From Takakia lepidozioides (taxonomy: Eukaryota; Plantae; Bryophyta): 64,000 nt of DNA. Shown piece by piece: positions 42,601 through 64,000 of the stretch. A program made the translations under genes and the position numbers. The DNA is taken from NCBI GenBank assembly GCA_030704615.1, contig CM060731.1:38626001-38690000 (forward strand), read 5' to 3'. The stretch's first letter is position 1. Each line of letters starts with the position of its first letter. A model generated the notes under the pieces. The model worked only from the letters and a program-made list of their open reading frames with translations. It had not been told where the DNA came from and ran no database searches.

Positions 42601-45089
42601 GCCTAGTTGTTACACGTCGGACGTCACGTCCAAACCGGACGTTGATCCGTGTATTTTTTTATTTTTTATTTTTACGATATACTTTTATAATGTATAATGA
42701 CATGGCAGCCACGGTGTAAAACACACATGGACAATGTTTTATTTTAAGGCGCGACCGCCAACGGACGGGCATCCGTCCGCAGGCATCAATATTGGCGGTT
42801 TGCCGTTTTTTTTTTTTCAAATAAAGTGACCATAATTTAGGCGATCGTTTTTTTTTTGTTTTTAAAGAAAATCAGGCGTCCGCCAATATTGACATCCCTT
42901 CAAATTTTTAAAAAAAAGAGAATAAAGCGTTTTCAATAGGCGTTGGGTCAAAAGGGACTATGTCATTAGTAATCCATTCCTTCCATAGAGGATACTAGGG
43001 TAGCCTATGCCGTTGGCCCAAGTGTCCAATGTCATCTAAGTCCATCAAGTGCATCAATATATGACATTGGACACTTGGGCAAAGGGCACAGCCTGCCCTA
43101 GTATTGATGAAAGCAGAACTGAAATATCCTCATTTTCGAAATTTGCATATAGTAAGGTGACCACTTACCAAGGTCAGGGTCAACCAAGAGGGAATTACCT
43201 AACCTTGTTCAATGCCTCCACTCCCTGCCTGCAGCACCTCTGTTCCAGAGAAGTGTGTGTGTTTGTCGGGCTCCCCCAGGACCTTCAGGATCATAAAAAC
43301 TGGAGCCTCGTACTTTTCTTTGCCTCCCCTGTATGGTTACTCTCATTGCAGACACAGACCCCTGGATAAAACAGCATAGACCTTAACATTGTACCAACAT
43401 AAAGAATGAAATGGAACTTTATATCGTCCGCCCAAAGTCTTGATACTTCATGCCAAACTGAATCTGGGGCCAGTGATTGATAACTGCCAAGGTTGTGAGT
43501 ATTAATGAATCTTTCTGGCCAGCTTGTATTATGGATCAACAACATCAAGTTCATCTGTGGAAGGTTATGCGAGACCCCACCATCGGGTGTTCACCTCGAC
43601 CTCTGAGCCAATCCCTCATCCTGTCACTTGTCCTCACAGTCATTGATTCCTCAGTATGTGTACAATTTTAAAGCTTGCAAGTGTGCACAATGGTGTTCTG
43701 GATATAGACCAACGGTCCAAGATCACCCGATTTCAGAAACAATTGCAACAATGAGGTGGTGTGCATTGAGTGTTCGCTGAGCTCACCTTGGGTGAAAGCA
43801 GAGACAACTGCCATGGTACAACATCGAGCACAATCTGCTGATTGTCAGACACATGCTGGGGACGATTTTAAATATCATCCACAGTCACCCTGGCCTGAAG
43901 AACAGGCAGAGGGAGTCAACAAGAAGTCTGCTGGCACTTGTAATGATGTGAGGGCATTAGGCGGCTTGGGAAAGCTTGAAGCTCGGAGGCTCTAAGTGTA
44001 GCATCGGATTCGCACCTGCGGCGAATTGGGCTGGAGCAGTCGCGGAGGTTGGCTGTCACGGTGCCGGCTATCGAGGCTGCGGTCGAGCTTTCTGTGAGTG
44101 AGTGAGTTGATTGGCTTCCTGCTCCTGTTTATGTGTCAATAGCGATGTGGTAGTAATAAGTCCAATTGACCTGCTTTAGGTTTAGGGTTTCAGTCGGATT
44201 TTTACTTTTTATGGGGGTGGCGACGAGCGCGGGTGAATGTGGTCCTCATTGGCGTGATAAGGATATTCTCCGATTTTATGTTGTGGGTTTTCTGATTTCT
44301 GATGGGAACCTGTAGTGTTCATGGTTTAAAAGATGATTTCTTGAACCAAAGGGCTTTAGTTGTCAGAAAACAGTGCATGCTTAGGATTGCCTCTTGAGTT
44401 TTCCAACTTCAGTTCTGGAGCTGGTTGCCTACTTCTCGTTGCTCTTCGACATCCATGACTATAGATGCGAAATCGGGATTGGTGGCGAATGGAATTGTTG
44501 GGCAGAAACGCATGCGGGAAGAGAAACGTGAAGAGAAATAGCGAGGTGATGAGAAAATCTAGTAGGGTATGGTGAAAACGATCGTAGGTTTCTCCGTTTC
44601 TGGGTCTGTTGTGGTGTATGAATACCCCGAAGGCCTCGCGTTCTCAGTCACACCGCTCTGGCTCCGCTGTGTATTCTGGGCGCCCGCTCCGCTCAGCTCT
44701 GTATTCTGAGTGCTTTGTCGCTCCCCTTTGTGTTTGTGTGCGGCCGGGCCCATCGCTGGTTAGTAACTCCATCTCTCCCTCTCTTCTCATCTGTGCATCC
44801 CATCGCTGCGGTCTGTCGATCGATGGTGGTTGATTTTGGCCGCTTCAATTGTCAAGTGTTTTCTGTGGCGATGTTGCAGTGGGTGGGGGTTGGGGTGCCA
44901 TCTTGCAGGGTTTGTATGCTTGTAAAGACAGCTGCGGCATTACGGGGGATACTATTCTTTGTTGTGCTTTTGCTGTTTCTCTTCATTATGTGCCTGGTAG
45001 TTAATTTGTGTGAATTGGAGAACAAATCCTTGCAGGCGCTGTGTGAGTGTCGCTTGCGGAGAAGCTCTTTCCTCTAAGTTTATGCTCCT

Positions 45090-46280
45090 ATGGAGCGTAT
45101 TTTTTGGAAATCGGAATTATTTGGGCCCGTTGGGGTTTTAACTACTCCTGATGGCAAGATCGACTTCCGTAGACTTGGTAAGGAGTATGGGTTGGATCCG
45201 ATTACCATCAAACTCGGTGGGATCGATGGTGGGATCGGTGTTCCTACAGATGCCGACCTTTTGTCAAGGTCTCTGTGGACAGATATCAAGAACTACTTGA
45301 GTGCAGAAGGAACGAAAGAAGATCCCGTGATTGTCAGTTGTCGTCCTAAAGGTATGTGTTGCTTCGTTTCCCTTTGTGCTCTATTCTTAAACCTTGAGGC
45401 GATTGTTTCCTTAGTTTGCTGTGTTGAAACCCAAACATCTGATTTATCTGATTTTATTACGTTTCATGCTTTGATTTGCCCCACGATTGGGATTACGAGC
45501 TAATTAGTTACTAATTAGACAGCGCGAAGATTTGCATTCGTCTCATAGATAGTTATGTCTTTGTTTGTTTAGGATTCTTTGTTTTTTCTTCAAGAATCGG
45601 ATGCTTGTGTTTTTCATGGCATATGAGGGTTACCCTGTTGTAGTGAAACTTGTGCCGTCTGGTTCAGAACGTGCAGAGGTGATGCTTCTTTCTTTTGATG
45701 GGATCCATTGTTGTGAAAGTTTTAAATGTATATTTGCGTTACATGTAATATCTTGTGTGTACAGGCTCTCTTGACTGAGATAAGGGCCTATAACAAGCTG
45801 AAGAAGTACTGGGGAAAATACGTACCGGAGCTTGTATCGTATGGGACTACTGCGGGGGGCAAAGTTGTGTACATTACAACCGAATTCATCAACGGTCATG
45901 AAATTGGAATGGGTATGTTACATAATGAGCTTGCTTTTACTGTGTTCGTGTAGTAGGGCAGTCTTTACTGTGTTACATGTAGTAGGGTACTAATATGTTG
46001 GATGCACGATTTGCAGCAGGAGTTTTGACCCCAGAAGCGGTGAAGGCGACATTTGATCACTCAACGTTGTGCATGAATTCTTCATGGGGACATCCGGAGC
46101 AATAATATCTTGGTTGTAAAGAGAGAGCAGGGAGTTCGTTTAATTGATTTTGGGTTTTCTAGTCCCATCACCAGCATTGAAGAGTGCAAGAGAGAGCGTG
46201 CACAGCTGGAATACATGTTGAAACAATTTTCTGGTTCTCATTGGTTCCGTTCAAATGGATACAAGTTTCGCATTGCGTGA
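45090..46280 (+). CDS. Small spliced gene or pseudogene: N-terminal 'header' domain plus minimal protein-kinase-like domain
   Basis: Putative exons 45090-45351, 45573-45678, 45765-45912 and 46020-46280 with GT-AG borders. Motifs [28 protein letters not shown]. Confidence 0.65.
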
Positions 46281-46529
46281 TGTGGAGAAGGAGCAAAAGG
46301 AATTTTCTCTTTGCTACCACAGTGAAAAGCTTGCCATTGCTTTTGGGCTCATCAGCACATCCCCTGGGACAACTATCCGCATCATCAAGAACCTTCGGGT
46401 TTGTGGTGACTGCCACACAGCCACAAAATTCATCTCAAAAATTGTTGGGCGAGCAGTTGTTGTGCGGGATGCCACCCGCGCTTTCACCACTTCCAAGATG
46501 GGGTATGTTCTTGTGGGGATTACTGGTGA
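46240..46529 (+). pseudogene. Orphan DYW cytidine-deaminase domain fragment of a PPR RNA-editing factor
   Basis: [11 protein letters not shown]...[10 protein letters not shown]...RD, then after a frameshift [15 protein letters not shown]. No PPR tract upstream. Confidence 0.92.
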
Positions 46530-49073
46530 TACAAGTAGCTTATCAGCAGCTACACAAATGCTTGTCCAAAGAATATTCTCCTCAGAGACAACTCGCATTT
46601 GAACTTACTGCTGGTGTCAGGAAGCCTAAATTTGGAGACCTTCACACATTACGCATGTGAAAAAACAGTCGGACAATATATCACCCAGCCTGAACTACGG
46701 TCCAGTGAGGTAAATATCTGTGGGCTAGCTATGAGATGATTATGCAAGTCTGCTGTGTCTTTCAATTATTTTCATTTGAATGTCAGATGACGTAATTTAT
46801 GTCAAGAGGCACAGGTTTTCATCTTTTGAAATTTGGTCTTCAAATCTGATCACAGACTTAACAGATTAATTACACATTTTCTGCAGAATACTGAACTTTC
46901 AGGAATCCTAACCTGTGAGACCCATGGACATGTGCTGGCATAATGTTTGTGTGAGAGAGAGAGAAAGAGAGAGAGATGAGAACATCACTATAGTTAGCTT
47001 GCTATGGGCTTGTGGCCTTCGACTTTACACAGCCCAGAGCAGAGATGATGATATCTCATTGTTTGTTCCCTGGGAAGGAGATGCATTTGAGGGCATTGTC
47101 CACATGGGATACTTAACCATCTGTAAGTTGTGGTGGAGTTCTATGAGCCAGAACTTGCCATAGCTTGGACATAGTTGGAGATTTGTTCTCTAGATTTTGC
47201 TTGCTGTCTCCTGGTGAGCATAGACCATGCACCCAGTTTGGTGGGAGGAGGGAAGGGTAGGAGATGGGTTTGGCAGAGGACAGCAGAATGGGGCCCACTG
47301 CTATCGCTGCCGGTGCACTGCACCAGTAAGACCTACCTGAGATTGAGTTGGTACTGGCCGACACAAAACTTATGGCTCTAGTATCAACTGGAGACGAGAG
47401 ATGACGGAGTTTCGACTGATTGGATGCCTTTGTTGGCCAGGTGTCGAACACATTCTACTTCACATGCTCACTCGACCCTGCAGCTGTGAAGGTTGGTACA
47501 TTATGTGCGCAGAGTGATGCCTGCCACTGAAGAAGAGGGGCGTGGCTTATCTTGCTCGCTACGATGCCAACCACCTGGTTAACTCTTGCTTACTTACCTA
47601 TTAAGTTTGCCAATGTATCTGTCTGTTGGAGCCTCTAGACGTCACTTTCAATCATAACCTTCAACAAGGTGGGAGGGAGGCAAAGTCACTCCTAATATCC
47701 CCACTGTGTGGAGCATATCTGAAAGGACCCTGAACTGTGAGAAATCCAAAAGGCCCTGGGACATTTTAGTTGGTTCACCATGGACACATGCTCAGTAACT
47801 GTATATCTCATAAAAGCTGAATTGGTCATAGGGTCCTCCATACCTGCTGCTAGTGGTTTGACCTGAGGTCCCCAAATGACAATGATGATGAAAGTTGAGC
47901 TCCAAGAAAATAGTTATATACAATTTGGATGCTCACACAAAACCCTGGCTAGACGACGCAAATCATCTGGCACCTCGAAATTGTGCTCTGCCAGCCATTT
48001 TCAGGTGGCAAAAATTTATGGTTTGGAATATCCTTAAAAGTGCTTAGCAGAGTACGTGATGTTTTATCAATCGTAGCTCATCCCATCAAGCAACTTTCAC
48101 TTTTCCTGATATGGAAACTAAAGTTCCATACAAATTTGTTTACGCAGTCCATAGAGGGACTGAAGGCCTCCCTGGAGTCTATCCTGCCCGTTACAGCAGT
48201 CGCCATCTTGTCGGCAACTTTTCAACGTGCTGCCATGGTCTCCTGTTTTCAGGAGTTGGACAGGCCCATTCAAAGACCTTGGCTGCCACACACAGAGAAA
48301 GAGGTGACTCCAGTTAAAGTCAACAATATCAAGAACCTCCTCCCTCCATAGAAACACTGCCCGATACTTTAAGTCACTAAAGGCCAAGTTACATGATGCA
48401 AAAAGGACCCAAGAGTGCTATGTGCGGTCTTTTTAGAAGACTCCAAACTCTTGCAGTTCAATTCTTTCTTTATGGATATGGAGGGATGGACTATTGCACT
48501 GGGCATCAAGAACTCCCTGGTACCAAAAGGCCAGCAGCAGCTAACTGGGGAGTTCCTCTACATCTACTCTAGAACCTGGTAAGCTAAGAATTTAGTTTGT
48601 GTTCTCATTGAAAGCAAATGCTGGAAGATAAGCAAATGAATTCAAGTGTAGCTAACTTCACATCTCGAAAGTTGTTGCCACAGTGAGTAATGATGTACAG
48701 GAGTTACAAGAGACTTATCAACGTGCCCAGGTATGTGCCCAATACAACTGAAGGGAGTCCAGCTTGGCGTGCTTGGACCTTAGTGACAAGTATCAAGGTT
48801 TCTACAAACTAAGCGGCTTATTAACACTTGCTGCAATTGCATTTAAACCCTGGACTACCACAGTTTGTGGATGTTGCATATGGAAAACTCAATTAGAGTT
48901 TGCGAGCTAGGCCTTCAATGTCTAACTTGTCCAGGCATAATGCCCGATGGGTGGGTGCCTTGAAGACTTGCCCACTTTCAGATACAATGTTCATGGTGTT
49001 TTCTCCATCCACCCTCTTCAGGACCACCAAGAACATAGCCCCTGCGCCTCTGTTCAGCAACTTTCGAAATCTC

Positions 49074-49429
49074 TGTCAAGTTAAATAAGCACAGTGTGAA
49101 AACAGCTAGAATAAAACTAGTTATTTGTATTTAACACTTGGAGTTAGGTCAAGTGTTAAATCAGGTGTCAAGTTTAGTTTGACACCTGGTCTATCTTATC
49201 TTCACGAGAGCGGCAGTCGTGCAGCTCATCTTTCTCGAGTTGAGCCTGCGCGACCGAGCTCCTGCATGTGTTTAGGTTTTAGTGTGCTTATGTAGGGATA
49301 CAGGTTGTTGTGGGGTGGAGTCCCCATAGCTTGGGGTGCCCCTGGCTCGACTTCAGTTTCAATGAGTGATAGCGATGGATTTTATATTTCTTGTGTTGGG
49401 AGTGTATGTCCTTTCAAGCTTCTTTATCA
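49074..49429 (+). repeat. Family-B 5' repeat A1 (3' part of the LTR, ends TTTATCA)
   Basis: Near-identical to 60625-60977: three transitions plus homopolymer indels. Confidence 0.95.
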
Positions 49430-49808
49430 CTCGAGAGAGATCAGCTCTTACCTGTGAGTGCAAGGTAGGAGTTGTGGGTTAGCACTTGCAAGATTACCTG
49501 TGTGTAAGTAGTGCTTAGTTTGAGAAGCATATCATTGAATGTGATCACAAGATTCAGCGTGCCCTGAAACGCCTGGAGGATGACGATGCCGGAGCCACCA
49601 CTGTTATTGCAGTCGCTAAAGCTACCAAGTCACCAGAGGCTTTGGAGTACACGAGGAGAGACTTAAAAATGCAGCAGCAAATGCTAGTTGGCACCTATGC
49701 GTGATCCTTGAAGCTGGATGATTGTTTCCCCAGTAAGCTTAGAGAGAAGCTCTACCGTGCAGCATGGAGCAGCGCTGGCAAGCGGTGAACGCTGATACCT
49801 GCACTCTT

Positions 49809-49895
49809 GCAGTCTTGGAGTCCAAGCTAGGACACAGGGAATATGACCGGTCAACAACCAAGGTGCTGCATTTGATCAACAATCCTGAAGTGGAG
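49809..49895 (+). pseudogene. MAD1: Captured fragment of spindle-checkpoint protein MAD1
   Basis: AVLESKLGHREYDRSTTKVLHLINNPEVE resembles the conserved MAD1 segment around the MAD2-binding motif. Confidence 0.7.
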
Positions 49896-49906
49896 GGAGA
49901 ATTGCG

Positions 49907-50248
49907 ATGGCCGCAGTAGCGCCATCTGCAGCGGAGGTGCGGGCGCTGTTGAGAGGCTTTCTCAGAGAAGCGTGAAGATTTACGCACTATAATGTGCGGG
50001 AGTACGTGAAACGGCGAAGTCGGGAAGCGTTTAAGGACAATTCCGAGCTGTCGGATCTTTCCAGCGTTGTCTCTGCTTTCAATCAGGGGAAGCAGCAGCT
50101 GGAATTGACTAGGCGGCAATCGGTTGTGTATTCGTTGTATCAACCTCGAATGACGAGTATAATGGACTTGAAGATTCGCAAGGGGGACTCGGACTCAAGG
50201 ACTCGATTCTGCTGGGAAGAAAAGGATTTTGGTCTGCAGATTGGATAG
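49907..50248 (+). pseudogene. LYRM4: Captured near full-length LYR-motif protein 4 (ISD11) with an in-frame TGA at 49973
   Basis: MAAVAPSAAEVRALLRGFLREA*RFTHYNVREYVKRRSREAF...RRQSVVYSLY..SIMD. Confidence 0.85.
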
Positions 50249-50749
50249 TCCATTCCGATTGTACATCCCGCCCGTCAAACTTGCATAATAACGTGGAAAG
50301 TTTAGGTTTCAGGCTGTCCTGTGTGCTTGATGTGAAATGGTTGAGTGGAATAGTAAAATCTCTGAGAATGTAACAGGCTCGAGACAAAGTCAAAAGCTGG
50401 ACTCTGCAGGTGAAGGGGAGTTTTCTTCTGGTTTTCTTTCATTTGGTGAGCATGCCGGGAGCGTGGAGGTGTGAGGAGTGGCAGGGCTTTCATCAGTTGC
50501 ATCTTTCTCAGCTGCTGTGTGTTTCACTAGTTGAACATCTTCGAAGCTGAATTACGGCTTAATTGGAAACCCGTACCCTGCTACTTCTGCCTATCAAGGT
50601 TATGGTGGGGGTGGATCAGGGGGGCAGGTGTTCCAGCTCCAGTTGTGTGCATATGTAACCTACCTCCCCGTAATCTCTTTTAGTTCTCCTCTAGGAGAGG
50701 TTACTTACTTGGACTGACAGGACCTGGATCAGTCTGGAAGAAAGTTTGA

Positions 50750-50970
50750 CCTGCGAATAACGTCCGTCCTTGCGATCCTTCTTCCTGTTCAAGAACCAGT
50801 CAGGTATCTTGAACTGCCGGGGATTCGCGACAATCACCATCAAGTTCTCCAGCTCCGCACCCGACAGCTCACCAGCTCTCTTGCTGGTGTCGACGTCCGC
50901 CTTCTTGCAGACCAGGTTAGCGAAACGGCGCCCCACTCCCTTGATGGAGGTCAAAGCAAACATGATCGCT
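50750..50970 (-). pseudogene. RPS18: Captured internal fragment of 40S ribosomal protein S18 (uS13), antisense to the element
   Basis: [32 protein letters not shown]...[24 protein letters not shown]; both ends of the protein are missing. Confidence 0.93.
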
Positions 50971-51697
50971 ACCTGAATTGAGATAGTGCCTTGCCCTATC
51001 GGAGTATGCAGACCTATGCTCCAAGCTTCAACTAAATGACGAAGCTGATCTGGTTACTCTCCACTTTGTGGATAGTCCAACACAGTTGCCTTTGTCAATA
51101 AGCTCCTTCACCACTTCCACATTTGACACTAGGTCCGAAGATTGTCTGAAGAGAGAGCAAGTGCAGATGGCAGCTGCCCACCAGGTTCTGACAGAGTATC
51201 ATCAGAGCTTGTCCCTGCATTAGGGATGGCTCGAGTGCTTGCATCACGGGAAATAGATGCCTGACGCTGCACAGGCCACCACCATCGCCATAGCCATCCA
51301 CCCGAGCTCGAGAGTCGTCGCTGGAGCAAAGCAGCTCACTAAGCGAGCAAGTCTGTGGTGCATCTGTAACCACAAATGAAACCCGGGAACGGTTCTTAAT
51401 GGCGGGAACGTTTTGGTGTTTAAAAAAAAAAAAAAAAAAAACTTTGATATAATTTAAATGATTTAGAGCCTGGTTGGTCATAACTTTGTCAAATGGACTC
51501 CGTTTGACTCAGTTTTTGGGTGGATAGCTGCAGAAAGGGGAAATCTACATGTCTACACCATGGTTTTTTGTTTTGGGGACTCTGCTAAAAATCTGTGGAA
51601 TTTTTAGAGTGTGAGTGTGCTATAAAAGATCCACAATTCTGTGTCCAGAATCTGTTGTGGTCTACATGAGACATAAATCTGTGGATGTACTCCATGC

Positions 51698-52446
51698 ATG
51701 GCTGGGGGAAATGAGGACGTAATTGAAGGGCAGGTCTCTTCTCTTAGCCTGTGCACACAAGGGGACAGGATCTATGTTTCCCAAGGAACTCAGACTGATT
51801 TGAGTGGAGAACAGTTGGACGAGTTGATTGCATACTGGGAGTCAGGCATTAGCAGTAGACAACAGACTGCTGTAGTTGGCATTGAGGGCCTCAATATCGC
51901 CTTGGACAGTCAGAACTCTGTTGGAGCCAGCAGTTCTGCAGCTGTAAGTGAAATACCAAAGTGGGTGAAAGCTAGGCTTGGAACACAGCCAAAGACAGCC
52001 CCGGGGACCAAGGTGTTCAGCCACAAGGCCGTGGTGTACTGGAGCAGAGGAGCAGGAGCTGCACAAGTTTGTGCAATTAGACAGTGTTGCAGTCGGACAC
52101 GCTCTGCACAAGGCAACCACGAGCGGGGTTCATTAGCGAGGACAAGTTTGTTCTGTTTGAAGGCGATCCAGTCATTCGCAATGAAGACACCCGCAACCGT
52201 CTCAAAGCTTTCGAGTTGAGAGACTATCAGACCCTACCTTTGTTTTCTTTAGTGTTCAGTGAGCGGGAGATAGCAGAGTGTTGCTTTGTCTCTACCTGGC
52301 AGAAAGAGGAGGAGGGTTGGTTAGAGCGAGCTACTGTAGCTTGGGACAAGGTTAGTGGCAGGTTTCTGGACATAGATATACCTCCTACACCTTACCATCA
52401 AGCAGAGCGAGGCACTTTGAGAGAAGTCTGGAAGTTGATAGCATAG
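51698..52446 (+). CDS. Extra ORF upstream of gag, unknown function (two overlapping frames, probably one ~250-aa ORF)
   Basis: ATG ORF of 173 aa overlaps a 120-aa ORF. Protein-like composition, but no motif recognised. Confidence 0.45.
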
Positions 52447-52959
52447 ATCAGGATTAGATCTTGCTTGGGCGGGGCTTTTATTCTTCCCCTCCATCTCTGT
52501 ACTATTTTCATTACCTTGTACTTGTAGTTGCCAAAGCCTCTCTTGGTGGAGGCCAGTCAGTCCGGGGTCTTGGGCTGGGATATTCTGCAGGATCAGCGTT
52601 GCTGCTGGATTTTGGTGTGGGGGTGTTGATGTTTTGATTTCGTGTGTTTGGATCCCCCCCAACACCTGCATGCTTGACTGTGCGCCATGTTGGTTTTGTG
52701 TGGGCGCTTGCTTTCATAGGGATTAGGCCGGATTTGATCACCGGTCAATCCTAGAGTATGCTGTCGGTGGTGAGGCTGGAGTGATGACCAGCAAGACCAC
52801 CAGTGTTTCTTCTATGGTGAGGCTGGGTTGATGACCAGCCAACCATAGGAGTTCTTGCGGTGGATGCAGGTGCAGGTGCCCTGAGCCACTGGGATATGAC
52901 CCTTAGACTGCAACAGGTGCCCACCCGTGTCACTATTAGATTAGTACTAGAGCCTTATA

Positions 52960-55809
52960 GTGTCACTGGAGGAGGTGCACATTGTGAGTGTCATTACGGA
53001 GTTACCCAAGGGTTTTGAGGGGAGTACGGCTACAGGCAGTAACAGTGAGAGTGGGTTCACAAGACGAGGTATTCGGTTCAGACCACCTTCACCGCCACCC
53101 TCAATTACTGTAGAGTCAGACACAGGCTCGGAGGCTTCATCAACAGGTGTGCACTTTCATTCGCCATTGTTGTGGGACGACATGGAGGAGATGTATGGAG
53201 CTACCAAGGGGCCTCGTAGGTACTCTGGAGCTGTGGGCACAATCGAGTTGGATGACTTTATCCAGGAGTTCGACAGCTGGTGTGATTTGCAGCAGATGCG
53301 CAATCCACATCTATTCACCCCATTCATGGCATGGAAGGGACTGTTCCAGCATTTGGAAGGCCCGCCTATGGACGATTACCACGAGTTCAGGCGAGGACAT
53401 GAAGCAGAGATTGAGGAGTGGAGGATGTATTGGTCACCTGACTACATCTCCATTACTCGAGGCATGACGCGACCAGTAGCTGCATCAGTACCAATAGCTC
53501 CCACTGCCAGCACTAGTAGTGGAGCAGGTAGTGCTGGTACTTCTGCCGGTGGTACCAGTTCAGAAGGTGCTACTACTCCTCCTGCCACAGCTACAACACA
53601 TGTGCCTAGATTCAACCCGGTGGTGGAGTTCTTCCAGGAGTTGCGGAGGAACTACCAAGGTGTACGGACAGAGAAGCTGCGAAGTTTGCAAGACTTCCAG
53701 CGCAAACCCAGTGAGAGCCTGCGAGAGGCGTACACTCGTATGAGGCGCTTGATAAGTGTGACCCAAGGGGTTACTGAAGCTCAGGCAATCCAGTTTTGGT
53801 ATGGAATTCTGGACAAGGAGCTCAAGAGAAGGGTGCGAGATGCAACCCTGTTACAAGCAGCCCAACCCACATTAGCAGATGTGTTTCTGCTGGCTGAGCG
53901 GATTGAGCTCAACATGGTGGAGGAACGAGTTGTTACAATTGGATTTGGCAAGGACATGCCTGTACGGGGCACAGCTGTCAGCCCACAAGCACAAGGGACT
54001 GCCCAACAGCGTGGTCAGGGGGGCAAGGTTGCCCAGCCCAAGTTCCATGGAGCTTACAGGGGACCTCAGGTGCAGAGGCCCGTGGCATCTTTTGCAGGCC
54101 AACAGCAACCAGGGGTGATATGTTGGACATGTGGAGGACCCCATGTCAAGAGAGATTGCCCAGAGAGTGGCAGAAGGCCGGCACAAGCACAGCCTGCACA
54201 GTTGCAGTGTGGGCATTGTGGCAAGTATGGGCATGGAGATGCCCAGTGTTATGACTTGCATCCTGAGTTGCGCCCAGGCCAGTTCCAAGGGAACAATGGT
54301 GGCCGGGGGCGAGGTGGACCAGCCCAAAGAGGACGAGGTGGTCGGGCACGAGGTGCAGGCCAAGGGCAACCTCCACATGGCCAAGGACGCGGAGGTCAGG
54401 GTGTTGACCAAGGCATGGCCAATCGGCTTCAGCAGCTAGAGCAGAGGCTCGCTGCCATGGCTATAGCTCAGGCGGTACCGGCTCCCAGGCGGGATGGCCC
54501 ACCTCCTGCTCCTGAGGGAGGAGATATGGGAGGAATGGGATTCATGTGCGGAGCAGCACTACCATTAGAGCAGGTGGAGTCTGCTGCAGCCGTGACTCGA
54601 GGAGCAACACGAGTTCCTGAGCCACGAGGTGCAGAGGTGGAGTTGGATCCACAACGTGGGGAGGCAAGCCGTCAGGCAAGGCTGCCTCAGTCATTCACCT
54701 TGGCGGAGACAGTGTCAACGCCATCCATGGCACCTAGTTCTCGCCCGACTGTTACCGAGGCGGAGGTTACTATGCCATTGGGGAGAGCTACACGTGCAGC
54801 ACTGACACCTGCTACCAAGGCTAGTGCAGCCGGTGTGTTATTGGGAGCAGCCACCTCTGTGTGTCAAGCCCCACTGTTCTCGGCAACCATGATTGCGACG
54901 CCGGGGGTGAGGCCAGCTGCAGTGTTCAGACTAGCAGCAACACTCTGTGAGAGTGGGGAGGTCACTTCATCTTCTGCGGAGTTAGTGGAAGGTGTAGTGG
55001 CAGAGGGATCCTCGGATTTGAGGGTCAAGACTGCCACGGCTGCGCCCTGGCAAGCTGCAGCTGCCAGGTTGACGGAGCTGCCAGCTAGGCCAGCCTTTGA
55101 GCGCGCCATGGTGACACCTGGAGTTGTCTTGTTAGACAACCAGGGAGGCATTTTCACTTTGAGTGGACCGGCAGGCAAGAAGTACCGGCCACTGCGGGTC
55201 TTGTTGGACTCAGGAGCTCAGCCACTGATGTTGGGCAGAGCTGCTATTGCAGGTTTGGGCCTCATGGAGGCGGATATGGAGCCTTGTCCTTTCCAGATAC
55301 AGACATCTCTGGGAGGATCAGAGCAGGCTCGCGGCATGACACGGCATCAGTTGGCTATTAGACTGCAGCCGGATCATCCTGTAGATGGCTCAGTGATGCG
55401 AGCCAAGGCCATTGTGACAGACGCGGTCTCTTACGATGTCCTCGTTGGTGGGGCAGTGTTATACCCCATGGGCTTCACCCTGGATTTCTGGGAGGAGTCA
55501 GCATCCTACAGGCCTGGATGGCAGTCAGGGGATGGTCGCCGTGCACAGCTCCCTGTGACATTCATTGGGGGTATTGCAGCTGCTCAGCGGGGCAAGATGC
55601 CAACACTAGCCGCCTTCACAGCTGCAGTCAGCTGGCCTGGAGAGTTGCTGGAAGGCAATGCCCATGCAGAGGATGTGCCACCTCCAGCAGAGCAGGTGAC
55701 ATGCATGGTACGGCGGAGTTGCCTGCCATGGTTGCTCACACTCCGTTGTGGGGTACGAGCAAGGATTTGCAGCACGCTGCTGATGGACGGGTGCAACAAG
55801 CTTGGGTAG
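52960..55809 (+). CDS. Family-B gag-protease (true start uncertain)
   Basis: 949-codon ORF. QRKPSESLREAY capsid motif; knuckles CWTCGGPHVKRDC and CGHCGKYGHGDAQC; RGG-rich tract; protease LLDSGA at ~55207. Confidence 0.9.
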   Translation: MSLEEVHIVSVITELPKGFEGSTATGSNSESGFTRRGIRFRPPSPPPSITVESDTGSEASSTGVHFHSPLLWDDMEEMYGATKGPRRYSGAVGTIELDDFIQEFDSWCDLQQMRNPHLFTPFMAWKGLFQHLEGPPMDDYHEFRRGHEAEIEEWRMYWSPDYISITRGMTRPVAASVPIAPTASTSSGAGSAGTSAGGTSSEGATTPPATATTHVPRFNPVVEFFQELRRNYQGVRTEKLRSLQDFQRKPSESLREAYTRMRRLISVTQGVTEAQAIQFWYGILDKELKRRVRDATLLQAAQPTLADVFLLAERIELNMVEERVVTIGFGKDMPVRGTAVSPQAQGTAQQRGQGGKVAQPKFHGAYRGPQVQRPVASFAGQQQPGVICWTCGGPHVKRDCPESGRRPAQAQPAQLQCGHCGKYGHGDAQCYDLHPELRPGQFQGNNGGRGRGGPAQRGRGGRARGAGQGQPPHGQGRGGQGVDQGMANRLQQLEQRLAAMAIAQAVPAPRRDGPPPAPEGGDMGGMGFMCGAALPLEQVESAAAVTRGATRVPEPRGAEVELDPQRGEASRQARLPQSFTLAETVSTPSMAPSSRPTVTEAEVTMPLGRATRAALTPATKASAAGVLLGAATSVCQAPLFSATMIATPGVRPAAVFRLAATLCESGEVTSSSAELVEGVVAEGSSDLRVKTATAAPWQAAAARLTELPARPAFERAMVTPGVVLLDNQGGIFTLSGPAGKKYRPLRVLLDSGAQPLMLGRAAIAGLGLMEADMEPCPFQIQTSLGGSEQARGMTRHQLAIRLQPDHPVDGSVMRAKAIVTDAVSYDVLVGGAVLYPMGFTLDFWEESASYRPGWQSGDGRRAQLPVTFIGGIAAAQRGKMPTLAAFTAAVSWPGELLEGNAHAEDVPPPAEQVTCMVRRSCLPWLLTLRCGVRARICSTLLMDGCNKLG

Positions 55810-55911
55810 AAGCTTTTGTACCGTCAGGAGAGGAGGAGAATGCGGTGATTGTACCAGGGCCACCTCATTGTCGCCATTGGACACACACCTCTTGTGTGGC
55901 AGCGACCGGAT

Positions 55912-56856
55912 GAAGGCATATGCCTTCTGGACTTATTTGGCGGGATCAGCACTGGATTGGCTGCAGTGCTGCAGGCAGGTGTACGAGTTCGACGTTACCT
56001 GTATGTGGAGAGGGATGAGACTGCACGACGTCTCACTGCTGCGCCATGTTGCTCAGATGGTGCAGCAGCATACCCTGAGTTGTTGCCGGTGTCTGCAGTT
56101 CGTGGATACAGCAGGCCTTGCCAGCAGACATTGCGTTGCTGGGGGCGCAGGATTTGGAGCGGGTTGGCTCCATTGATCTGGTAGTGGCAGGTTGGCCCTG
56201 CCAAGGGCATTCATCAGCCGGGCATGGCAATGGATTGCGAGACTCGAGGACGGGTCTGTTTTGGGAGATGGTGCGGATTTTGCGCCACTTGCAGCTTCAT
56301 CAGGCTGTATCTCCGGCATACATCTTGGAGAATGTGCCACTGATGGGTGATTCTCGGGCCAGGGTGATGGCCAGTGTGCATCAAGTCCGGTCGTGGCTTG
56401 GGTCAGCAGTATTGCTGGATGCAGCTGCAGTGGGGTCACGGGCTCATCGTCCACGACTATGGTGGACTAACTTGATGCCACCCGCACTGCTCAAGCGTGC
56501 ATTTGATGGGGTGCAGCGGCCAGCACACCTCACCGTGGATGGCATTTTGGACACGGGAAGGCAGTCTCAACGTGTGAGACACGATGACCGTTCGCCTTTG
56601 GCAGTGGTCAACAGAGTGGGTCAACCACGAGCAGCATTACCTACACTGCTCAGCTTCCCAGGATCCCATGCTTTTCGGGATGGTGGACCTGGCCTCCTGT
56701 GGGATGCTCAGTTGCAGCAGTTAGTGGAGCCTAATGCCGACGAGCGAGAGCGGGCTATCCACTGGGACCACGGCGGTGCCTTCCCTTTCTGAGGCATCAC
56801 GTCGTCAGGTGTTGGGGCAAGCAATGGATCTCAATTGCTTGACCTGGATTGTCAGC
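55912..56856 (+). CDS. DNMT3-like C5-cytosine methyltransferase domain inside pol (frameshifted in this assembly)
   Basis: Motif I LDLFGGIS, IV AGWPCQG, VI ILENV, VIII AHRPRLWWTNL, IX ERERA, X RRQVLGQAM, all in canonical order. Confidence 0.92.
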
Positions 56857-57249
56857 TTGGCTATGGCTGAGCAACGTAGAGTGCGGAGTGCACTTCCCTT
56901 GATGGTCTCTCTGCCTACCGAGACGGTACAGGCAGCGAGTGGGGGCGAGCCGGTGAGGACCACGAGGTGTAGACATCCATGGCACATGTGGGAGGTGCTC
57001 GAGGTTCAGAGGGAGTTGGCAGCGAAGGCAGCTGTGATGGATGAGGTTGGGGATTCTTCTCGGGATGAGGAGGTTCTCAATGATGAGATGATGGGGCAGG
57101 ATGAGGCCTTGTCATTGACTGAGCAGGAAGGGGGTACTGCTCAAGAGGTTGCAGCATAGCAACCACGGGACGCGTCCTCTACCTCTAAGCCCACTGGACT
57201 TAAGGTTGCAGTTACGGAGGACAATTGGGAGCCTGATATTGGACCCATT

Positions 57250-58660
57250 GTCACCGGAGGAGAGAGACGACGTATACGGCGGTTCCTGAGGGCTTACAGG
57301 AATTGCTTTGCCTTCAGTTTGAAGGACTTGGGAGCACTGAAGGGTCAAGAGATCCGTATTGAGTTGGCCACTGACACGCCAATCTTTCGGAGACCCTATA
57401 GATACAGTGACATGGAGAGGTCTTTGATTCAGATGAGGACTCAAGATCTCTGGGAGGCAGGTTTGGTGGAGCTCTCTGGTGGAGAGTATGCTTCAGCCAC
57501 AGTGATGCCAGCTAAGAAGGATGTCTATGGCAATTGGACGGAGAGACGTATGTGCGGTGATTACCGGCCTGTAAATCGTCAGACCAAGTCCGATAGGTAT
57601 GCCATGCCAACACCAGAGGAGATCTTTGATGCCATTGGGCATTCCAAGGTCTTTAGCACGTTTGGATTTACGATCCGGATATCACCAGTTGCCGATCAAG
57701 GAGGCGGATAAGCAAAAGACGGCATTCTGGGGGATCAATGAGCACGGGAAGGATTGCCTATACCAGTGGCGATTCTTACCATTTGGGCTTAAAAACGCTC
57801 CCGCTGAGTTTCAAAGAGTCATGGACAGGATTCTAGCAGGGGTGGAGTTTGCTCGGTGCTACATAGATGACATCATCATCTTTAGTGCTGCGGTGGAGGA
57901 GCATGAGAGACACCTTCAGGGGGTATTTGAGCGCTTGAGGACGCACGGATTGAAGTTACATCCGGGCAAGTGCAAGTTTTTCCACAACCAGATTGAGTAC
58001 CTGGGTCACATGATATATCCTGGAGGATTGGGGGTACAACAGACTAAGGTAGAGTCCATTGCACAGGTTCCACGTCCCACGGATGTGAGCCGAGTTCGAG
58101 CTTTCATGGGGTTAGCAAACTATTACAGACGGTTTGTTAAGGGATTTAGTGCCATTGCAAAGGCTCTAACCAAGCTGACCAAGGTGGACCAGGAGTGGCA
58201 GTGGGAAGATGAGCAAGAACAAGCTTTTCAAGAGCTCAAGGCGAGGTTGACCTCGGCGCCCATCTTGAGACGACCTATCAGGGGGCGTCCCTTTCAGCTG
58301 CATACAGATTGGAGCATGCTGGGGCTTGGAGCGGTGCTCACACAGGTGGATGATGAGGGAAGAGAGTTCGTAGTGGCTTATGCTAGTCGCTCGAACAATG
58401 CTGCAGAGTCTAGTATAGCTCATATGAGGGAGAATGCTTAGCTGCAGTGTGGGCCGTGGCTCACTTCAGGTGCTATTTATACGGCAATCTCTTCACCCTT
58501 GTCACGGATCACCAACCACTCAAGTGGTTGATGGAGTCAGACAAGCTTACGGGGAAGCTTGCACGGTGGGCACTCATCCTTCAAGAGTATGACTTTCAGG
58601 TGGTGCATCGACCGGTTTGGTCAATCGAAATGCAGATGGGTTGAGTCGCAATCCATGCAC
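57250..58660 (+). CDS. Family-B reverse transcriptase and RNase H
   Basis: [32 protein letters not shown] (57860), LHTDWS, TDHQPLKWL, NADGLSR. Confidence 0.95.
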
Positions 58661-59029
58661 GAGCCAGCAGGATGACACTGGAGCTCGGTGGCATGGTGAG
58701 ACGGACGAGGAGATGGTGCCCGGATGGCATGCATCGGCATTTCTGTGTATCTTGGCAGCGGAAGGCCAGGTTGGACCTACAACAGGGATGACTGTAGATC
58801 AAGTGTCTGAGGACCCTGAGGCCAGCAATGAGCAGGTGGCGCCAAAGATATACATGAGGATTCAGTTGTGTTGGACTACCTCCGCAGTGGAGACACGGCA
58901 GCCACTTATGACTGCCAAGGAGAGGGATCGGATCCTACAACGAGCCAAGAGGTTCAGGTGGGAGGGGACACACCTGCTCCGAGTGTGGGAGGATGGTCGA
59001 GTGAGGATTGTGCCTCACCCAAACAGCGG

Positions 59030-60286
59030 GCACGGTTAGTGCGACATGCCCATGAGGAGTTGGGGCATTTTGGGGTGCGACGCACTCATAGTCTACTGCA
59101 GGGCAGTATTGGTGGCGTGGTATGCACACAGAGGTGCAACAATTTGTGGCTAGGTGCATGGTGTGTGACACGTGCTTCATTCAACGCCCCTACTCCACAA
59201 TTGCACCCTCTTCCGATCATGGGATTGGGCTACAGGTGGAGTCTTGACTTCGCAGGGCCGTTGCCACTGACCATGCGCCACAACAAGTACGTGTTGGTGA
59301 TGGTGGAGCACTTCTCCAAGTGGATTGAATTGGTTCCATTGCCTGATAAGGCTAGTGAGGGAGCTGCGTATGCATTCCTGGATTGTGTGCTTAGCCGATT
59401 CGGTGCTCCAGCTGAGGTACTCACGGACCAAGGGAGAGAGTTCTTGGGGGAGTTTCAGGCTTTGTGTGACAAGGCCTTGATAGACCACCGCACCACTTCT
59501 CGGGATCATCCTGAAGCCGATGGCTTGGCAGAGAGAGTTGTTCAGACAGTAAAGAGGGGTTTGCGCAAGTATGGCTTGCAGAAGGGACACCTAGGAGATT
59601 GGGACCTTCAGTTACCCTGGTTAGCCATGGGCTACAGGTTCAGCAAGCAAGCATCACTTGCCTCCTTCTCACCATACTTTCTTCTCTTTGGCCGAGAGCC
59701 GGATTTGCCTACATCCATTCGCAGAGAAGCTGCTACAGTTCTTAACCTTGACGATCCGGACGTGTGGGCACGTGCATGTGAGCAGCGTGCAGAGTTGTTC
59801 AAGAGAGTCATGCCCATGGCTTTCGAGAACCTTGCCATTGCACAACACCGTGATACGTTGAGGTATGCCACCATACGTGGTGGGGGCTATCGTCCTGGGG
59901 TTCGGAGACTCAACCCTGGTGACTATGTCTATCTGCAGCAGACTGCTCCTACGACCCTGGATGTGACTGCAGGACGTGTTATTTTGAGGGTTCGAGAGGT
60001 CTTGCCCTCAGGCGTCTTGGTCTTGGAGGGTCGGGATGGCATAACTTGGAAGGACCATGTGCGTAATTGTGCGCCATGTCACCTTCCGAATGTCGATGGC
60101 AGGATTGACCCAAACCTGGCAGTGGTATCTGCAGGTTTGAGGTGCATGTTGTGTGGGTCTGCTAAAGGGGCAGCCACCATGCTGGTGTGTGATCGATGCT
60201 CTAGAGGTTGGCATATGGGATGCTTGACTCCACCTCTTGAGATGGTTCCGGATGGGGATTGGTTATGTCCACAATGCATTGGATAG
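59030..60286 (+). CDS. Family-B DDE integrase with C-terminal PHD finger (60143-60277)
   Basis: HEELGH..CMVC; SLDFAGP, TDQGREF, GLAER; C4HC3 finger CMLC..VCDRC..WHMGC..WLCPQC. Confidence 0.95.
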   Translation, partial: ARLVRHAHEELGHFGVRRTHSLLQGSIGGVVCTQRCNNLWLGAWCVTRASFNAPTPQLHPLPIMGLGYRWSLDFAGPLPLTMRHNKYVLVMVEHFSKWIELVPLPDKASEGAAYAFLDCVLSRFGAPAEVLTDQGREFLGEFQALCDKALIDHRTTSRDHPEADGLAERVVQTVKRGLRKYGLQKGHLGDWDLQLPWLAMGYRFSKQASLASFSPYFLLFGREPDLPTSIRREAATVLNLDDPDVWARACEQRAELFKRVMPMAFENLAIAQHRDTLRYATIRGGGYRPGVRRLNPGDYVYLQQTAPTTLDVTAGRVILRVREVLPSGVLVLEGRDGITWKDHVRNCAPCHLPNVDGRIDPNLAVVSAGLRCMLCGSAKGAATMLVCDRCSRGWHMGCLTPPLEMVPDGDWLCPQCIG

Positions 60287-60530
60287 TGGGAGTGGATACA
60301 ACCATGGAAGGCTAACAAGCAACGCAAGGCCCAGCTACAGGATACCTTGAACACACGAAGGCCTGGCTCAAGTTCACAGATTGCAAGACGGCGACTAACG
60401 ATGGGGCTACTCTTGTACCCGGCCTCTTGGTCTATAGAGTTTGAGTACGATAGGGACAGTGATAGAGGACTTAGTACGGCTATGGCTATTACGTCTTGTA
60501 GCTATCTGGAGGTAGAGGGACCTATCCACC

Positions 60531-60545
60531 AGCTAGGGGGGCGAT
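60531..60545 (+). promoter_or_regulatory. Polypurine tract of family B
   Basis: AGCTAGGGGGGCGAT directly before TGTGG, the LTR start. Confidence 0.75.
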
Positions 60546-60977
60546 TGTGGTAGACTACTTTATTGTGCATATATGTGTGGTGTGGTTCGAACAGCGATGT
60601 AGTTGTGTAGTGATATGTATGCGCTGTCAAGTTAAATAAGCACAGTGTGAAAACAGCTAGAATAAAACTAGTTATTTGTATTTAACACTTGGAGTTAGGT
60701 CAAGTGTTAAATCAGGTGTCAAGTTTAGTTTGACACCTGGTCTGTCTTATCTTCACGAGAGCGGCAGTCGCGCAGCTCATCTCTCTCGAGTTGAGCCTGC
60801 GCGACCGAGCTCCTGCATGTGTTAGGTTTTAGTGTGCTTATGTAGGATACAGGTTGTTGTGGGGTGGAGTCCCCATAGCTTGGGGTGCCCCTGGCTCGAC
60901 TTCAGTTTCAATGAGTGATAGCGATGGATTTTATATTTCTTGTGTTGGGAGTGTATGTCCTTTCAAGCTTCTTTATC
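60546..60977 (+). repeat. Full family-B 3' LTR (B1 + A2), followed by a second LTR start B2 (60981-61059)
   Basis: Starts with TG after the PPT. A2 matches A1. The 79-bp B is repeated with two transitions. Confidence 0.9.
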
Positions 60978-61729
60978 TATTGTGGTAGACTACTTTATTG
61001 TGCATATATGTGTGGTGTGGTTCGGACAGCGATGTAGTTGTGTAGCGATATGTATGCGCATGACAGCTCGAAGCTGACCACCTCGATGGAATCTCCCTCC
61101 AGATATTTCATTAAAGATCCGAGGACATATGGGCAGTTTCAGTAAAAGGGCAAGGTCATTGGATGGCCTCGTAGGCCTTTAGGGGTGAATCAACCAAGAG
61201 ACTGAATGAAGGATTCATCCTTTCATCACTTGTACAAGTAGCTTATCAGCAGCTACACAAATGCTGTCTTAGAATTTTATTTCAGAGACAACTTGCATGT
61301 GAGCTTACTGCTGGTGTCATGATGCCTAAATTTGGAGACCTTCACACACTGCGCATGTGAAGAAACAGTCGGACAAGGATGCAAGGCTGCACAAACATGT
61401 CAGCCTGCAATTACCTCGCGTTGCAAAGTGGAATCAACCAGTGGCTACAAATACTCTTCAACAGCTGGTGAAGCAGCAATTCTAGCTTTGTTGAGATATG
61501 CCTCATTGTTTGGCTCTCTGTCCTCCAACCTTCACAAAAGCACCACATCAACCCAACCTCAAAGGTTAGCAACAAAGAGCCTGCCTGACACTAGCACAAG
61601 CTTCCTACCTTAGCAATTTGCTTGACCAATAGATCCATCAAGATGGTTGCCATTAGAGTGTCAAGGTTGAGGACTTGGGATCCTACAAGGCATGTCCTTG
61701 CCGAGAGGTCAGAACCACTCTAGACACCA

Positions 61730-63430
61730 AAGAAAACATACATGTCCACAAGGGTATTGTTAGGAATCATATTTGGTACAATTTCGCCTTTCACAATGTC
61801 AGCATGGACCTCTTTGCCCTTTTGCAGAGCTGCCAAGCTGGAACACGCATTGCAAACGCAAACAAATGTGATCTGGTCTCACCCCTTCTGTCGCGGCCCT
61901 TTGCCTCGAGGGCAGGGGGGTCGGGACACAAGAGGGGCTGCCCCTGTGGTGGGGGTAGTGGCAGCGATAGGTATGGGGGGCTGAAGCACCCTTGAGTGCC
62001 CAAAGCACTCAAAGAGGCGGAGGCGCTCACTAGGTGGAGCCCCGCACACCGGGTCGTGGTGGGGGTGGCTCCACAAGGGGTGGTGGTAGCTTAGCGGGAC
62101 TTAGTGGGGGTGGCATAGGACTGACCTTGGGGCGGAGACCTCGTGGTGGGAGTCGTGGGGAGTCTTGGGACTCGTCACGGTCCATAGGGGCCGTGGTGGA
62201 TGGGCCAAGACTCACCGCGACTCATCACCGGGAGTCGAGGGTGTTCGTGGTGGTTCGCCATAAAATAGCATGGTTGTTTGTGAAACCCCCGCGGACAGCT
62301 ACAGAAGTATATATAGGGAGTAGTAACCCCGAGAACGGTGCAAGCCCGTTGGTGACCGAAAACTAGTGAGTAAGCGAGCGAGCCGGAAAGCGACCAAAGA
62401 GTGGGGAGCTGTTCCGGACTGCCAACTACCAAAGGGAATTCCGTTGGTTCCAAATCGTTGGAGGGTTCTTTGGGAGATCAAAAGGGGGACCGTTATGCCC
62501 CGGTGAGCAGCCGAAGCTCCAAGTTGGCCCGGCGGCCAGGTTGGGAGTTAGGCGCGCATCAAGCGAGTAACTATGACATTTGGTACAATTCCAGCTCTCA
62601 TGATGTCACCATGAACCTCTTTGCCTTTTCCCAGGTCTGCCAGGCTTGCACACACATTGCACATACACACGGACGTGATGTGGTTGGGCTTCACCCCTTT
62701 GCAGATCATTTGCTCATAGGTCTCCAAAGCCTCCATCCAACAACCAAGCTGGGCATATACTGCGATCATCGCACTCCAGGACACCACATCCCGTTCAGCC
62801 ATATGGTCAAATATTCCCATTGCATCCTTGATGCTCCCACATTTGGTATACATATCTATGAGGGTAGTTTCCAAGATGATATTTGGTACAATTCCAGCTT
62901 TCCTGATATCACAATGGACCTCTTTACCCTTCTCTAGGGCTGTCAGATTCGCACACACACTGCAAATGCAAACAAACGTGACCTGGTTGAGTGTCCAACC
63001 TTCCAGGATCATTTGCTCATAGGTCTCCAAAGCCTCCCTCACACACCGATGTTGGGCATATCCTACTATCACTGCATTCGCGCATCATCTGCTCATATGT
63101 CTCCAAGGCATTCTTACCACACCCATGCTTGGCAAGTCCTGCAATCATTATGTTCCACGAGATCAAACCTCGTTGAGGCATTTTGTCGAACACTTGGTGT
63201 GCATCCACAATGCTCTTGCATTTGACATACATGTTGACAAGGGTGTTGTGTAGAAACACATTTGGCTTGAATCCACTTTGGATAATGTGAGCGTGCACCT
63301 TCTTTCCAGCTGTTAGGTCTTTCATCTTCATGCTCTTATGCAGGAGACAGACAGAAGTATATGAACATTGTGCTGAAATACCTCCTTGGTTCAAAGTTTG
63401 CAGAGCCTCTTTCAGTTGTCCTGCCTCACT
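61730..63430 (-). pseudogene. PLS-class pentatricopeptide repeat gene, frameshifted and interrupted by a solo LTR
   Basis: NTLVNMYVKC..DAHQVFDKM..ISWNIMI; TTLIDMYTKCGSIKDA..RDVVSWSAMI; TFVC..AC..L..GKEVH repeats on both sides of the LTR. Confidence 0.9.
61889..62577 (+). mobile_element. Family-A solo LTR lacking the last ~35 bp
   Basis: TGTCGCGG start, collinear with LTR7 up to CTATGAC, then PPR sequence. Confidence 0.93.
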
Positions 63431-63842
63431 TGGTGTCCTTTGCCCATAAGCACAAGAAGACATCCTCTGGACTCCCTCTCTTGGTCCCCTTTTGGAAGTG
63501 GTTGTCATGGTGGAAGTGCCTGATTTTAGCAGCTGTGGTCCCACTCCTGCTTCCAGTTGACCATCTACCCATGCAAATTTCTTGCAGCTATCAATCCACG
63601 GCGGCTCATTGGTACTCTTGCGCTTGAGATCTGGCCCTCTCGGATGGACCTGGACCCACAACTCCATCACGACCTCCAATTATCCCTGCCTTGGCAAAAA
63701 CAAAATCTCCACCTTGCTGTTGAGAGCTACAATGACAAACCATAATTTATCTAGCAAACACCCCAACTGCACCTTCCAGACCTTTCATCTTGATGCACTT
63801 AAGCAAGAGACAGACAAACGAATCTGAATCTGCTGAAATACC

Positions 63843-64000
63843 TTAGAGCCAAATTGGTCATATCTTTGTCAAATGGGCTCTGTTTGACTCAATTTTTGAG
63901 GGGATAGCTGCAGGAAGGGAAAATCTACCTATCTAGACCCAGTGAGAGCCTGCGAGAGGCGTACACTCGTATGAGGCACTTGATAAGTGTGACCCAAGGG
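63843..64000 (+). mobile_element. Internally deleted family-B derivative (continues past the window end)
   Basis: 63843-63939 resembles 51463-51559 and is joined directly to gag sequence 53707-53769. Confidence 0.8.

Follow-up and report, generated by a model that had tools for sequence, protein, structure and literature searches.

Ty3/Gypsy retrotransposons that carry a DNA methyltransferase (DNMT) are a known kind, and printed descriptions of them come only from algae. The example closest to the element described here is KnitGypsy-Dnmt3 of the alga Klebsormidium nitens. According to the excerpts of the report by de Mendoza et al. (2018) that deal with it (PMC5890265), it combines Gypsy domains with an intronless, unpermuted DNMT3-like domain under purifying selection, encoded in the Pol open reading frame (ORF) with reverse transcriptase (RT) and RNase H (RH). 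Its repeats follow the order A-coding-B-A-B, which those authors define as DIRS type. Its DNMT domain, the sole tested member of the group, left yeast DNA unmethylated in an assay that the authors call inconclusive. The same repeat order occurs in SymbioDIRS-Dnmt3 of Symbiodinium, whose DNMT3 domain methylates CG in yeast (PMC5890265), and it defines the PAT/Ngaro elements (PMC4157794); these carry a tyrosine recombinase. Like the element described here, the EpiLTRs of Cymbomonas and Euglena are LTR elements with a cytosine methyltransferase and a chromatin reader, but their DNMT is sister to DNMT4 and comes with DAM and a chromodomain, and in the relevant sections of the preprint the authors separate them from 'streptophyte Gypsy-DNMT3' (bioRxiv 10.64898/2026.05.21.726589). 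Later papers of the de Mendoza group refer to 'streptophytes' only.

We analysed a stretch of 64,000 nucleotides of the land plant Takakia lepidozioides (the window; contig CM060731.1) and found in it a 12-kb Ty3/Gypsy element at 49074-61065 that bears a DNMT3-like domain. Gag, protease (PR), RT, RH and a DDE integrase (INT) follow each other in the Ty3/Gypsy order, the full arrangement being Gag-PR-DNMT, then TAG CAR YY, then RT-RH-INT-PHD. A putative primer-binding site, a polypurine tract, TG..CA ends and a probable short target duplication are present. The features are as follows.

49070..49073, no strand: left 4-nt flank TCTC, probable target-site duplication, three of four letters equal to the right flank
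49074..49429, plus: repeat A1, 5' end of the element; starts TGTCA, ends CA
49223..49240, plus: A segment complementary to the primer-binding site (18 nt, 89% complementary), predicted self-primer and probable transcript start
49430..49446, plus: putative primer-binding site of the self-priming type, directly 3' of A1
49520..51400 (approximate limits), no strand: leader insert of ~1.9 kb with host gene pieces, from Pfam, contig depth and the A1-to-gag length
51420..52950, plus: family leader, where contig depth climbs to family level
53182..57159, plus: ORF1, with Gag, aspartic protease and DNMT; in several frames in the window copy
near 54121-54250, plus: two Cys/His knuckles of Gag, within ORF1
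55201-55218, plus: protease motif LLDSGA, within ORF1
55912..56856, plus: DNMT3-like C5 cytosine methyltransferase domain, from Pfam, three-frame translation and solved relatives
57157..57165, plus: in-frame TAG, then CAA CCA, a TMV-type CAR-YYA readthrough context
57160..60286, plus: ORF2, with RT, RNase H, integrase and PHD finger; in several frames in the window copy
57860 (YIDD), 59246 (integrase D), 59426 (D), 59531 (E) and about 60142-60280 (PHD), plus: sites in ORF2, from Pfam and translation
60531..60543, plus: polypurine tract 5' of B1, read from the sequence; the same tract occurs at L003, L021, L023 and L036
60544..60624, plus: repeat B1; the B1|A2 junction is shorter than the palindromic junction of relatives
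60625..60978, plus: repeat A2, from repeat comparison
60979..61065, plus: repeat B2, 3' end of the element; ends TGACA
61066..61069, no strand: right 4-nt flank GCTC, from flank comparison
63836..64000, plus: second family fragment, internally deleted and running off the window; first 84-86% identical to the leader and thereafter 98% to gag 53706-53769

Downstream of the DNMT, Pfam recognised RT, RNase H, integrase and the PHD finger; Gag gave a weak match only (E 0.004, below the cut-off). A solo LTR next to an unrelated element was ruled out, as flanks and relatives fit one element. An Rfam scan of 44000-64000 returned no match, and ARAGORN found no tRNA. The family is clearly very abundant: the summed contig depth over its interior reaches ~10^6 in public run X1 against 70-75 on the unique flanks, a figure that is not a copy number. 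The first-pass annotation of this DNA had pointed to DNMT-bearing elements of a charophyte alga, and a kinship to these is made probable by the Gypsy domains, the DNMT3-like domain and the A-coding-B-A-B order shared with KnitGypsy-Dnmt3, as compared with its published description. The hosts differ, one being an alga and the other a land plant.

The leader of the window copy holds an insert. Pfam identified an ORF of the LYR family near 49904-50248 (plus strand) and an intronless rps18 piece at 50694-51000 (minus strand). In run X1 the contig depth over this insert is 472-1101, or 7-15 times the 70-75 of the flanks, with contigs differing by at most two letters, and the distance from A1 to gag is 3.6 kb in the window against 1.0-1.2 kb in seven relatives. 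Thus, a sub-lineage with captured host gene pieces may have multiplied. The family leader also contains a reading frame at 51677-52443, in two pieces of ~250 codons in total and at about one third of the family depth; it had no Pfam match and no relative among our loci or proteins, and the Atlas gave none at 0.9 (best 0.86). Elsewhere in the window, 900-27500 and 61889-62577 are occupied by a young Gypsy family of chromodomain type (chromodomain read by eye), forming a head-to-tail array with a period of ~5.36 kb in which LTRs are shared, besides an inverted copy and solo LTRs. Its copies are 98-100% alike and show many single-base indels, like an unpolished long-read assembly. About ten copies of dispersed repeats of 68-124 nt lie at 33900-36850, and host gene pieces at 37805-38386, 46270-46530 and 62548-63679 correspond to a mannose-binding B-lectin (Pfam E 1.5e-5, below the cut-off), a DYW-like C-terminus (by eye) and PPR repeats.

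Three-frame translation of the window placed the C5-MTase motifs DLFGG at 55930-55944, PCQ at 56196-56204, ENV at 56328-56336, RAHRPR at 56439-56456 and QAMD at 56818-56829. Motifs I to X are in unpermuted order, not permuted as in DRM, between LLDSGA (55201) and YIDD (57860); the ordered set with PCQ, ENV and RxR between protease and RT had been noted before, and its coordinates hold. Pfam DNA_methylase matched the open piece 56079-56789 above its cut-off with an E value of 1.5e-13, far above chance. The best matches among solved (PDB) structures were DNMT3A/B, both for the window piece and for the DNMT of the intact relative L004, which is 68% identical to it. L004 matched DNMT3A at E 1.7e-11, HhaI at 1e-3 and DRM2 at 0.02, and the alignment with DNMT3A begins at motif I and reaches the C-terminal motif. 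When L004 was modelled with AlphaFold (pLDDT 92.6), the top fold match was the DNMT3A-DNA structure 6f57 (E 3.8e-19, TM 0.67/0.84), and among the matches listed 30 of 30 were DNMT3A/B/C. Judged by sequence and predicted fold, the domain is of DNMT3 type, nearer DNMT3 than DRM2, DNMT2 or bacterial enzymes. The host plant enzyme PpDNMT3b also has an unpermuted DNMT3 catalytic domain, but as a stand-alone gene (PMC6453930); the proteins retrieved in our homologue searches included no host DNMT3.

The catalytic Cys, Glu and Arg are kept in most homologues. A crude pattern count nevertheless found all three catalytic motifs in only 190 of 299, and the inactivity of the KnitGypsy-Dnmt3 domain on yeast DNA also counts against a catalytic reading. 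The DNMT of the window copy is interrupted at four or more points (near 56030, 56070, 56108 and 56757) and lies across several frames, so that this copy is untranslatable as assembled. Contigs of public runs differ from the window in length at nine or more places between 55696 and 59100, of which 56108 is within the DNMT, indicating that several breaks are absent from other copies or are assembly errors. The element is young, A1 and A2 being 98.6% identical over 356 nt and B1 and B2 97.5% over 81 nt, in line with the ~99% given earlier.

The first-pass annotation had the domain embedded in pol, which does not quite hold, since the DNMT ORF is parted from RT by an in-frame TAG (57157-57159). 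The DNMT forms the C-terminal end of ORF1, behind Gag and protease, and does not belong to the RT-integrase ORF; in this respect the element differs from KnitGypsy-Dnmt3. After the TAG the frame resumes into RT (TAG CAA CCA). Many homologous proteins stop about 95-145 residues past the last DNMT motif, and an in-frame stop lies between DNMT and RT at all 30 testable loci, that is, those of 42 metagenome loci that span the junction in this layout. A chance mutation of the window copy was ruled out, since the stop is conserved in relatives. The codons behind it read CARYYA at 7 loci and CAR-YY-C at 21, giving 28 of 30, and neither at two; L028 and L041 lack the CAR-YY motif, which speaks against our main reading. 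We also compared five groups less than 70% alike, the window counted, with duplicates removed, L041 (without the motif) left out and L001 added: exact CARYYA occurs in four of them, against a background of 0.2%. The fifth, which is decayed and with 21 members the largest, mostly has CAA CCC ATG instead, so that re-initiation would be allowed as well as readthrough.

CAR-YYA after UAG is the readthrough signal of TMV and gave 32% in a plant reporter (PMC2754532), and readthrough is a known means of holding Pol below Gag in retrotransposons (PMC10085805). Unbroken ORF1s occur in P0004 (1278 aa) and L023 (1369 aa), ORF2 is a single frame of 1047 aa in L023 and L026, and in L023 only the TAG lies between the two intact ORFs. 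In favour of readthrough, the first Met of the window ORF2 is residue 85, behind a stretch conserved from residue 12-21 on; against it, DNMT and RT share one ORF without a stop in P0250, P0257 and Closterium P0144/P0267. Taken from sequence conservation, the stop is likely leaky. Its conservation in relatives together with CAR-YY suggests that synthesis of protease and DNMT likely matches that of Gag, with RT and integrase produced at a fraction of this level, and thereby predicts the amount and destination of the enzyme. An in-frame stop sets the Gag to Pol ratio in Tosmo, Tj1 and Tca2 as well (PMC10085805, PMC6317226, in the parts describing them), but there it follows Gag, whereas the stop in the window follows protease and DNMT and has a plant-virus CAR-YYA context.

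An HMMER search of 1.84 billion representatives gave 100 matches with E values up to 1e-30. With 94 longer homologous proteins and 42 metagenome loci, and with the DNMT at the same position in dozens of relatives, the domain is a constitutive part of a multi-copy Gypsy family and not a peculiarity of one copy. Named homologues comprise 16 Marchantia polymorpha clusters (the best 71% identical), two each from Calypogeia fissa, Sphagnum and Closterium, and one Chromochloris model, with two further labels set aside; the Marchantia members are annotated, e.g., Mp_4g09160 and Mp_8g17980. The proposed land-plant lineage is supported by close relatives in liverworts (Marchantia, Calypogeia) and Sphagnum. 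The homologue searches returned no named match from seed plants, ferns or Klebsormidium, and IMG/VR yielded one weak match only, to an unrelated phage methyltransferase locus.

Two layouts were distinguished: 74 entries have the DNMT before RT, and 113 are arranged as RT-RH-DNMT-INT; another 184 are DNMT-only pieces. A quick RT tree and a quick DNMT tree, both with SH-aLRT support only, each split them; the former omits 43 of 73 unnamed RT-DNMT rows and the window RT piece (below the length cut), and the latter 110 of 179 rows. The DNMT-before-RT clade takes in Closterium and bryophytes (SH-aLRT 92 including Closterium), and the other Chromochloris and Cymbomonas. In the quick tree, which has no host outgroup, an SH-aLRT of 100 supports the grouping of the window DNMT with Marchantia, Calypogeia and Sphagnum. 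Members of the second large clade have RT-RH-DNMT-INT-PHD in one ORF (P0051, P0055-P0063, L039:828-5792; named members from Chromochloris and Cymbomonas), so the DNMT would have moved or been gained twice within green plants; we found no description of this clade in the literature examined.

When the window DNMT was compared with 21 loci, dN was 0.21-0.62 and dS was saturated in 17; omega in the other four was 0.08-0.21. For L023 against L026, omega was 0.12 in the DNMT and 0.05 in RT. In the decayed group of 21 members, values were 0.37-0.67 for the DNMT against 0.28-0.69 for RT, which counts against our main reading. Between lineages, these sequence comparisons indicate that the DNMT is under purifying selection, as the dN/dS check proposed in the first-pass annotation shows wherever dS is measurable. 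Neutral decay across copies is contradicted by this selection and by intact ORFs in L004, L023, L026 and P0004.

The repeats do not form an ordinary LTR pair, with full identical LTRs at the two ends, but are split direct repeats: A (356 nt) starts at 49074 and again at 60625, and the copies of B (about 81-87 nt) start at 60544 and at 60979. L021 has the same A-coding-B-A-B order in a different sequence, and L003 and L036 show parts of it. The elements end in TGTCA and (T/C)GACA, of TG..CA type, and eight of ten 5' ends start with TGTCA (those of L023 and L026 not counted). A 4-bp target duplication is exact in L021 and L024, two of the three elements with both ends; L024 is internally deleted and rearranged and has kept it. 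The internal B|A junction of L021 is a palindrome, TGACA-GC-TGTCA, with close forms in L003 and L036. The window is less favourable, as its own junction is shorter and not palindromic and its flanks match in three of four letters. In contigs of X1 (28) and X5 (4) the B end passes straight into the A start. Complements to the primer site of 9-16 nt occur in 7 of 12 loci and of 6 nt in two, with none in three, and their letters differ from those of the window, where the A segment at 49223..49240 is paired in the predicted fold (z -3.5). The self-priming Ty3/Gypsy elements Tf1/sushi and Tcn1 have a self-complementary primer site too (PMC10085805, PMC6317226, sections on these elements).

Some elements have a single B after the polypurine tract (L008:6945-7057; L007 and L012 near 6005-6127, reverse; L024), possibly by recombination of B1 with B2 or by insertion of one-repeat circles. 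The spacing from the second D to E of the integrase (59426-59531) is 35, one residue less than in the neighbouring chromovirus. No tyrosine recombinase was found by Pfam in the window pieces or the intact L023 ORFs, and a DIRS identity was ruled out for lack of this recombinase. What sets the window element apart from SymbioDIRS, PAT and Ngaro is its rve integrase, together with TG..CA ends and 4-bp duplications.

With a polypurine tract before B1 and a self-priming site, B+A would act as an ordinary LTR, and the integrated form would be equivalent to a two-LTR circle in circularly permuted form. If the palindrome were cut in a staggered manner, 3' of each CA, the resulting ends would be exactly those that a DDE integrase joins to a target, and HIV-1 integrase is able to cut circle-junction palindromes (PMC1905944). 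The split repeats, DDE integrase and ends together suggest integration by a cut in circular cDNA. This model gives no explanation for the 5' ends, ten of ten of which consist of A alone with no B before it, or for a cut at the upstream junction only. The 5' ends are better explained by a route like that of PAT/Ngaro elements, with the internal B1|A2 junction serving as template for both ends and no two-repeat circle; it accounts for A-coding-B-A-B alone being seen, the very order by which PAT/Ngaro elements are defined. Against it stand the conserved primer-binding site behind A1, the conserved polypurine tract ahead of B1, an A2|B2 join made up of the A end plus the letters following the tract, the lack of a Pfam match to a tyrosine recombinase, and the presence of 4-bp duplications. 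We regard the PAT/Ngaro-like route as possible but doubtful.

As to the substrate of the enzyme, synonymous-site CpG in the element is at 0.33-0.35 of expectation, and the young chromovirus family in the window has 0.73-0.83, a contrast with one control family, part of whose plus-strand set is out of frame; CHG is not depleted. No further non-DNMT retroelement control was usable among the loci. Host DNA in the window is also CpG depleted (0.57), and relatives range from 0.03 to 0.76, both of which weaken the contrast. The CpG loss in the sequence fits repeated CG methylation in the element's own cycle. A chromodomain is absent after the integrase, and a PHD finger is found instead, with CHD4, PHF12, KDM5A/B and ATXR5 as best solved matches. 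The fingers of these proteins are mostly readers of the unmodified H3 tail, which offers no more than a lead. In the comparison set of Tf1/sushi and Tcn1, as far as described there, the corresponding place is taken by a chromodomain.

We favour, by a little more than even chances, the reading that this high-copy family related to KnitGypsy-Dnmt3 packages a DNMT predicted to be made at Gag level, which methylates the element's own new cDNA, probably at CG. Most ribosomes would halt at the TAG, and a minority would read through to RT, integrase and PHD finger. Reverse transcription, self-primed after A1 and using the polypurine tract before B1, would give a linear cDNA with B+A at each end. Joining of these ends would form a two-repeat circle and leave the CA-AT-TG join of the type found between A2 and B2 of L021. 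The DDE integrase would then cut the upstream B|A palindrome into two CA-3' ends, producing A-coding-B-A-B and a 4-bp duplication; target choice is likely biased through binding of the PHD finger to the H3 tail. Pre-methylated cDNA would arrive resembling host heterochromatin.

The enzyme could instead be catalytic but act in trans, after or outside packaging, with bulk expression serving this role; its substrate would be host chromatin, rival elements, the target site or the integrated copy. Expression at Gag level would make more enzyme than one cDNA needs, the PHD finger on the integrase points to chromatin, and the host enzyme PpDNMT3b acts de novo in heterochromatin, according to the relevant part of PMC6453930. 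Yet fusion to Gag would put the DNMT in the particle, and the synonymous CpG loss of the element itself fits self-methylation, so we consider action in trans unlikely. It is also conceivable, though quite improbable, that the DNMT is kept for DNA binding or for guarding the B|A palindromes, through the choice of junction to be cut or a block of self-integration, and not for general cDNA methylation. DNMT and split repeats do occur together in the window, L021 and KnitGypsy-Dnmt3, the palindrome centre is GC within CAGCTG, and the Knit domain was inactive on yeast DNA; but the conservation of the catalytic Cys, Glu and Arg in most homologues and the AT centre of the L036 palindrome argue against it. 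The many frame breaks in the window copy, with other window repeats indel-rich too, would suit a passenger under no selection, a nested insertion or an error of assembly. This explanation is refuted by the constant position in dozens of relatives, the intact ORFs of L004, L023, L026 and P0004, purifying selection, and, in X1 and X5, a depth over the DNMT that resembles that of the remaining interior, and its chance of being right is minimal.

What is new here are the land-plant members, the DNMT at the end of ORF1 before a readthrough-type stop, and the details of the ends (duplication, self-priming, palindrome). The openly readable literature gave no report of a land-plant DNMT-Gypsy, of the readthrough junction or of the integration route, although supplement trees of the de Mendoza laboratory from 2025-2026 may include such elements. 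Term look-ups in PMC12344493, PMC11982613, PMC6317226, 10.1101/363937 and 10.1101/2021.02.12.428880 gave the same result. 'PHD' and 'Marchantia' are absent from the text and supplements of PMC5890265, and its examined parts do not mention target-site duplication, self-priming or a palindrome. LTR finders that require two equal LTRs likely miss such elements, which may explain their seeming absence from plant catalogues; 'methyltransferase' and 'PHD' have no occurrence in the REXdb paper (PMC6317226).

The ends of this element point to a way in which split repeats can persist alongside a DDE integrase. A wider picture, which we offer tentatively and think is probably not correct in full, is that of an old Gypsy clade spread across the green lineage, young and abundant in some land plants, with a capsid-level methyltransferase obtained by readthrough and a DDE cut of the circular-cDNA palindrome, in which the enzyme marks the cDNA and may pick the palindrome. 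If true, this mode of retrotransposition would lie halfway between retroviruses and DIRS/Ngaro, and the enzyme would be tied to the permuted LTRs. Why a transposon should carry a transposon-silencing enzyme has been a question since 2018, with one algal example and a negative assay for the Gypsy case. The annotated Marchantia polymorpha members, together with methylation mutants, make this question directly testable.
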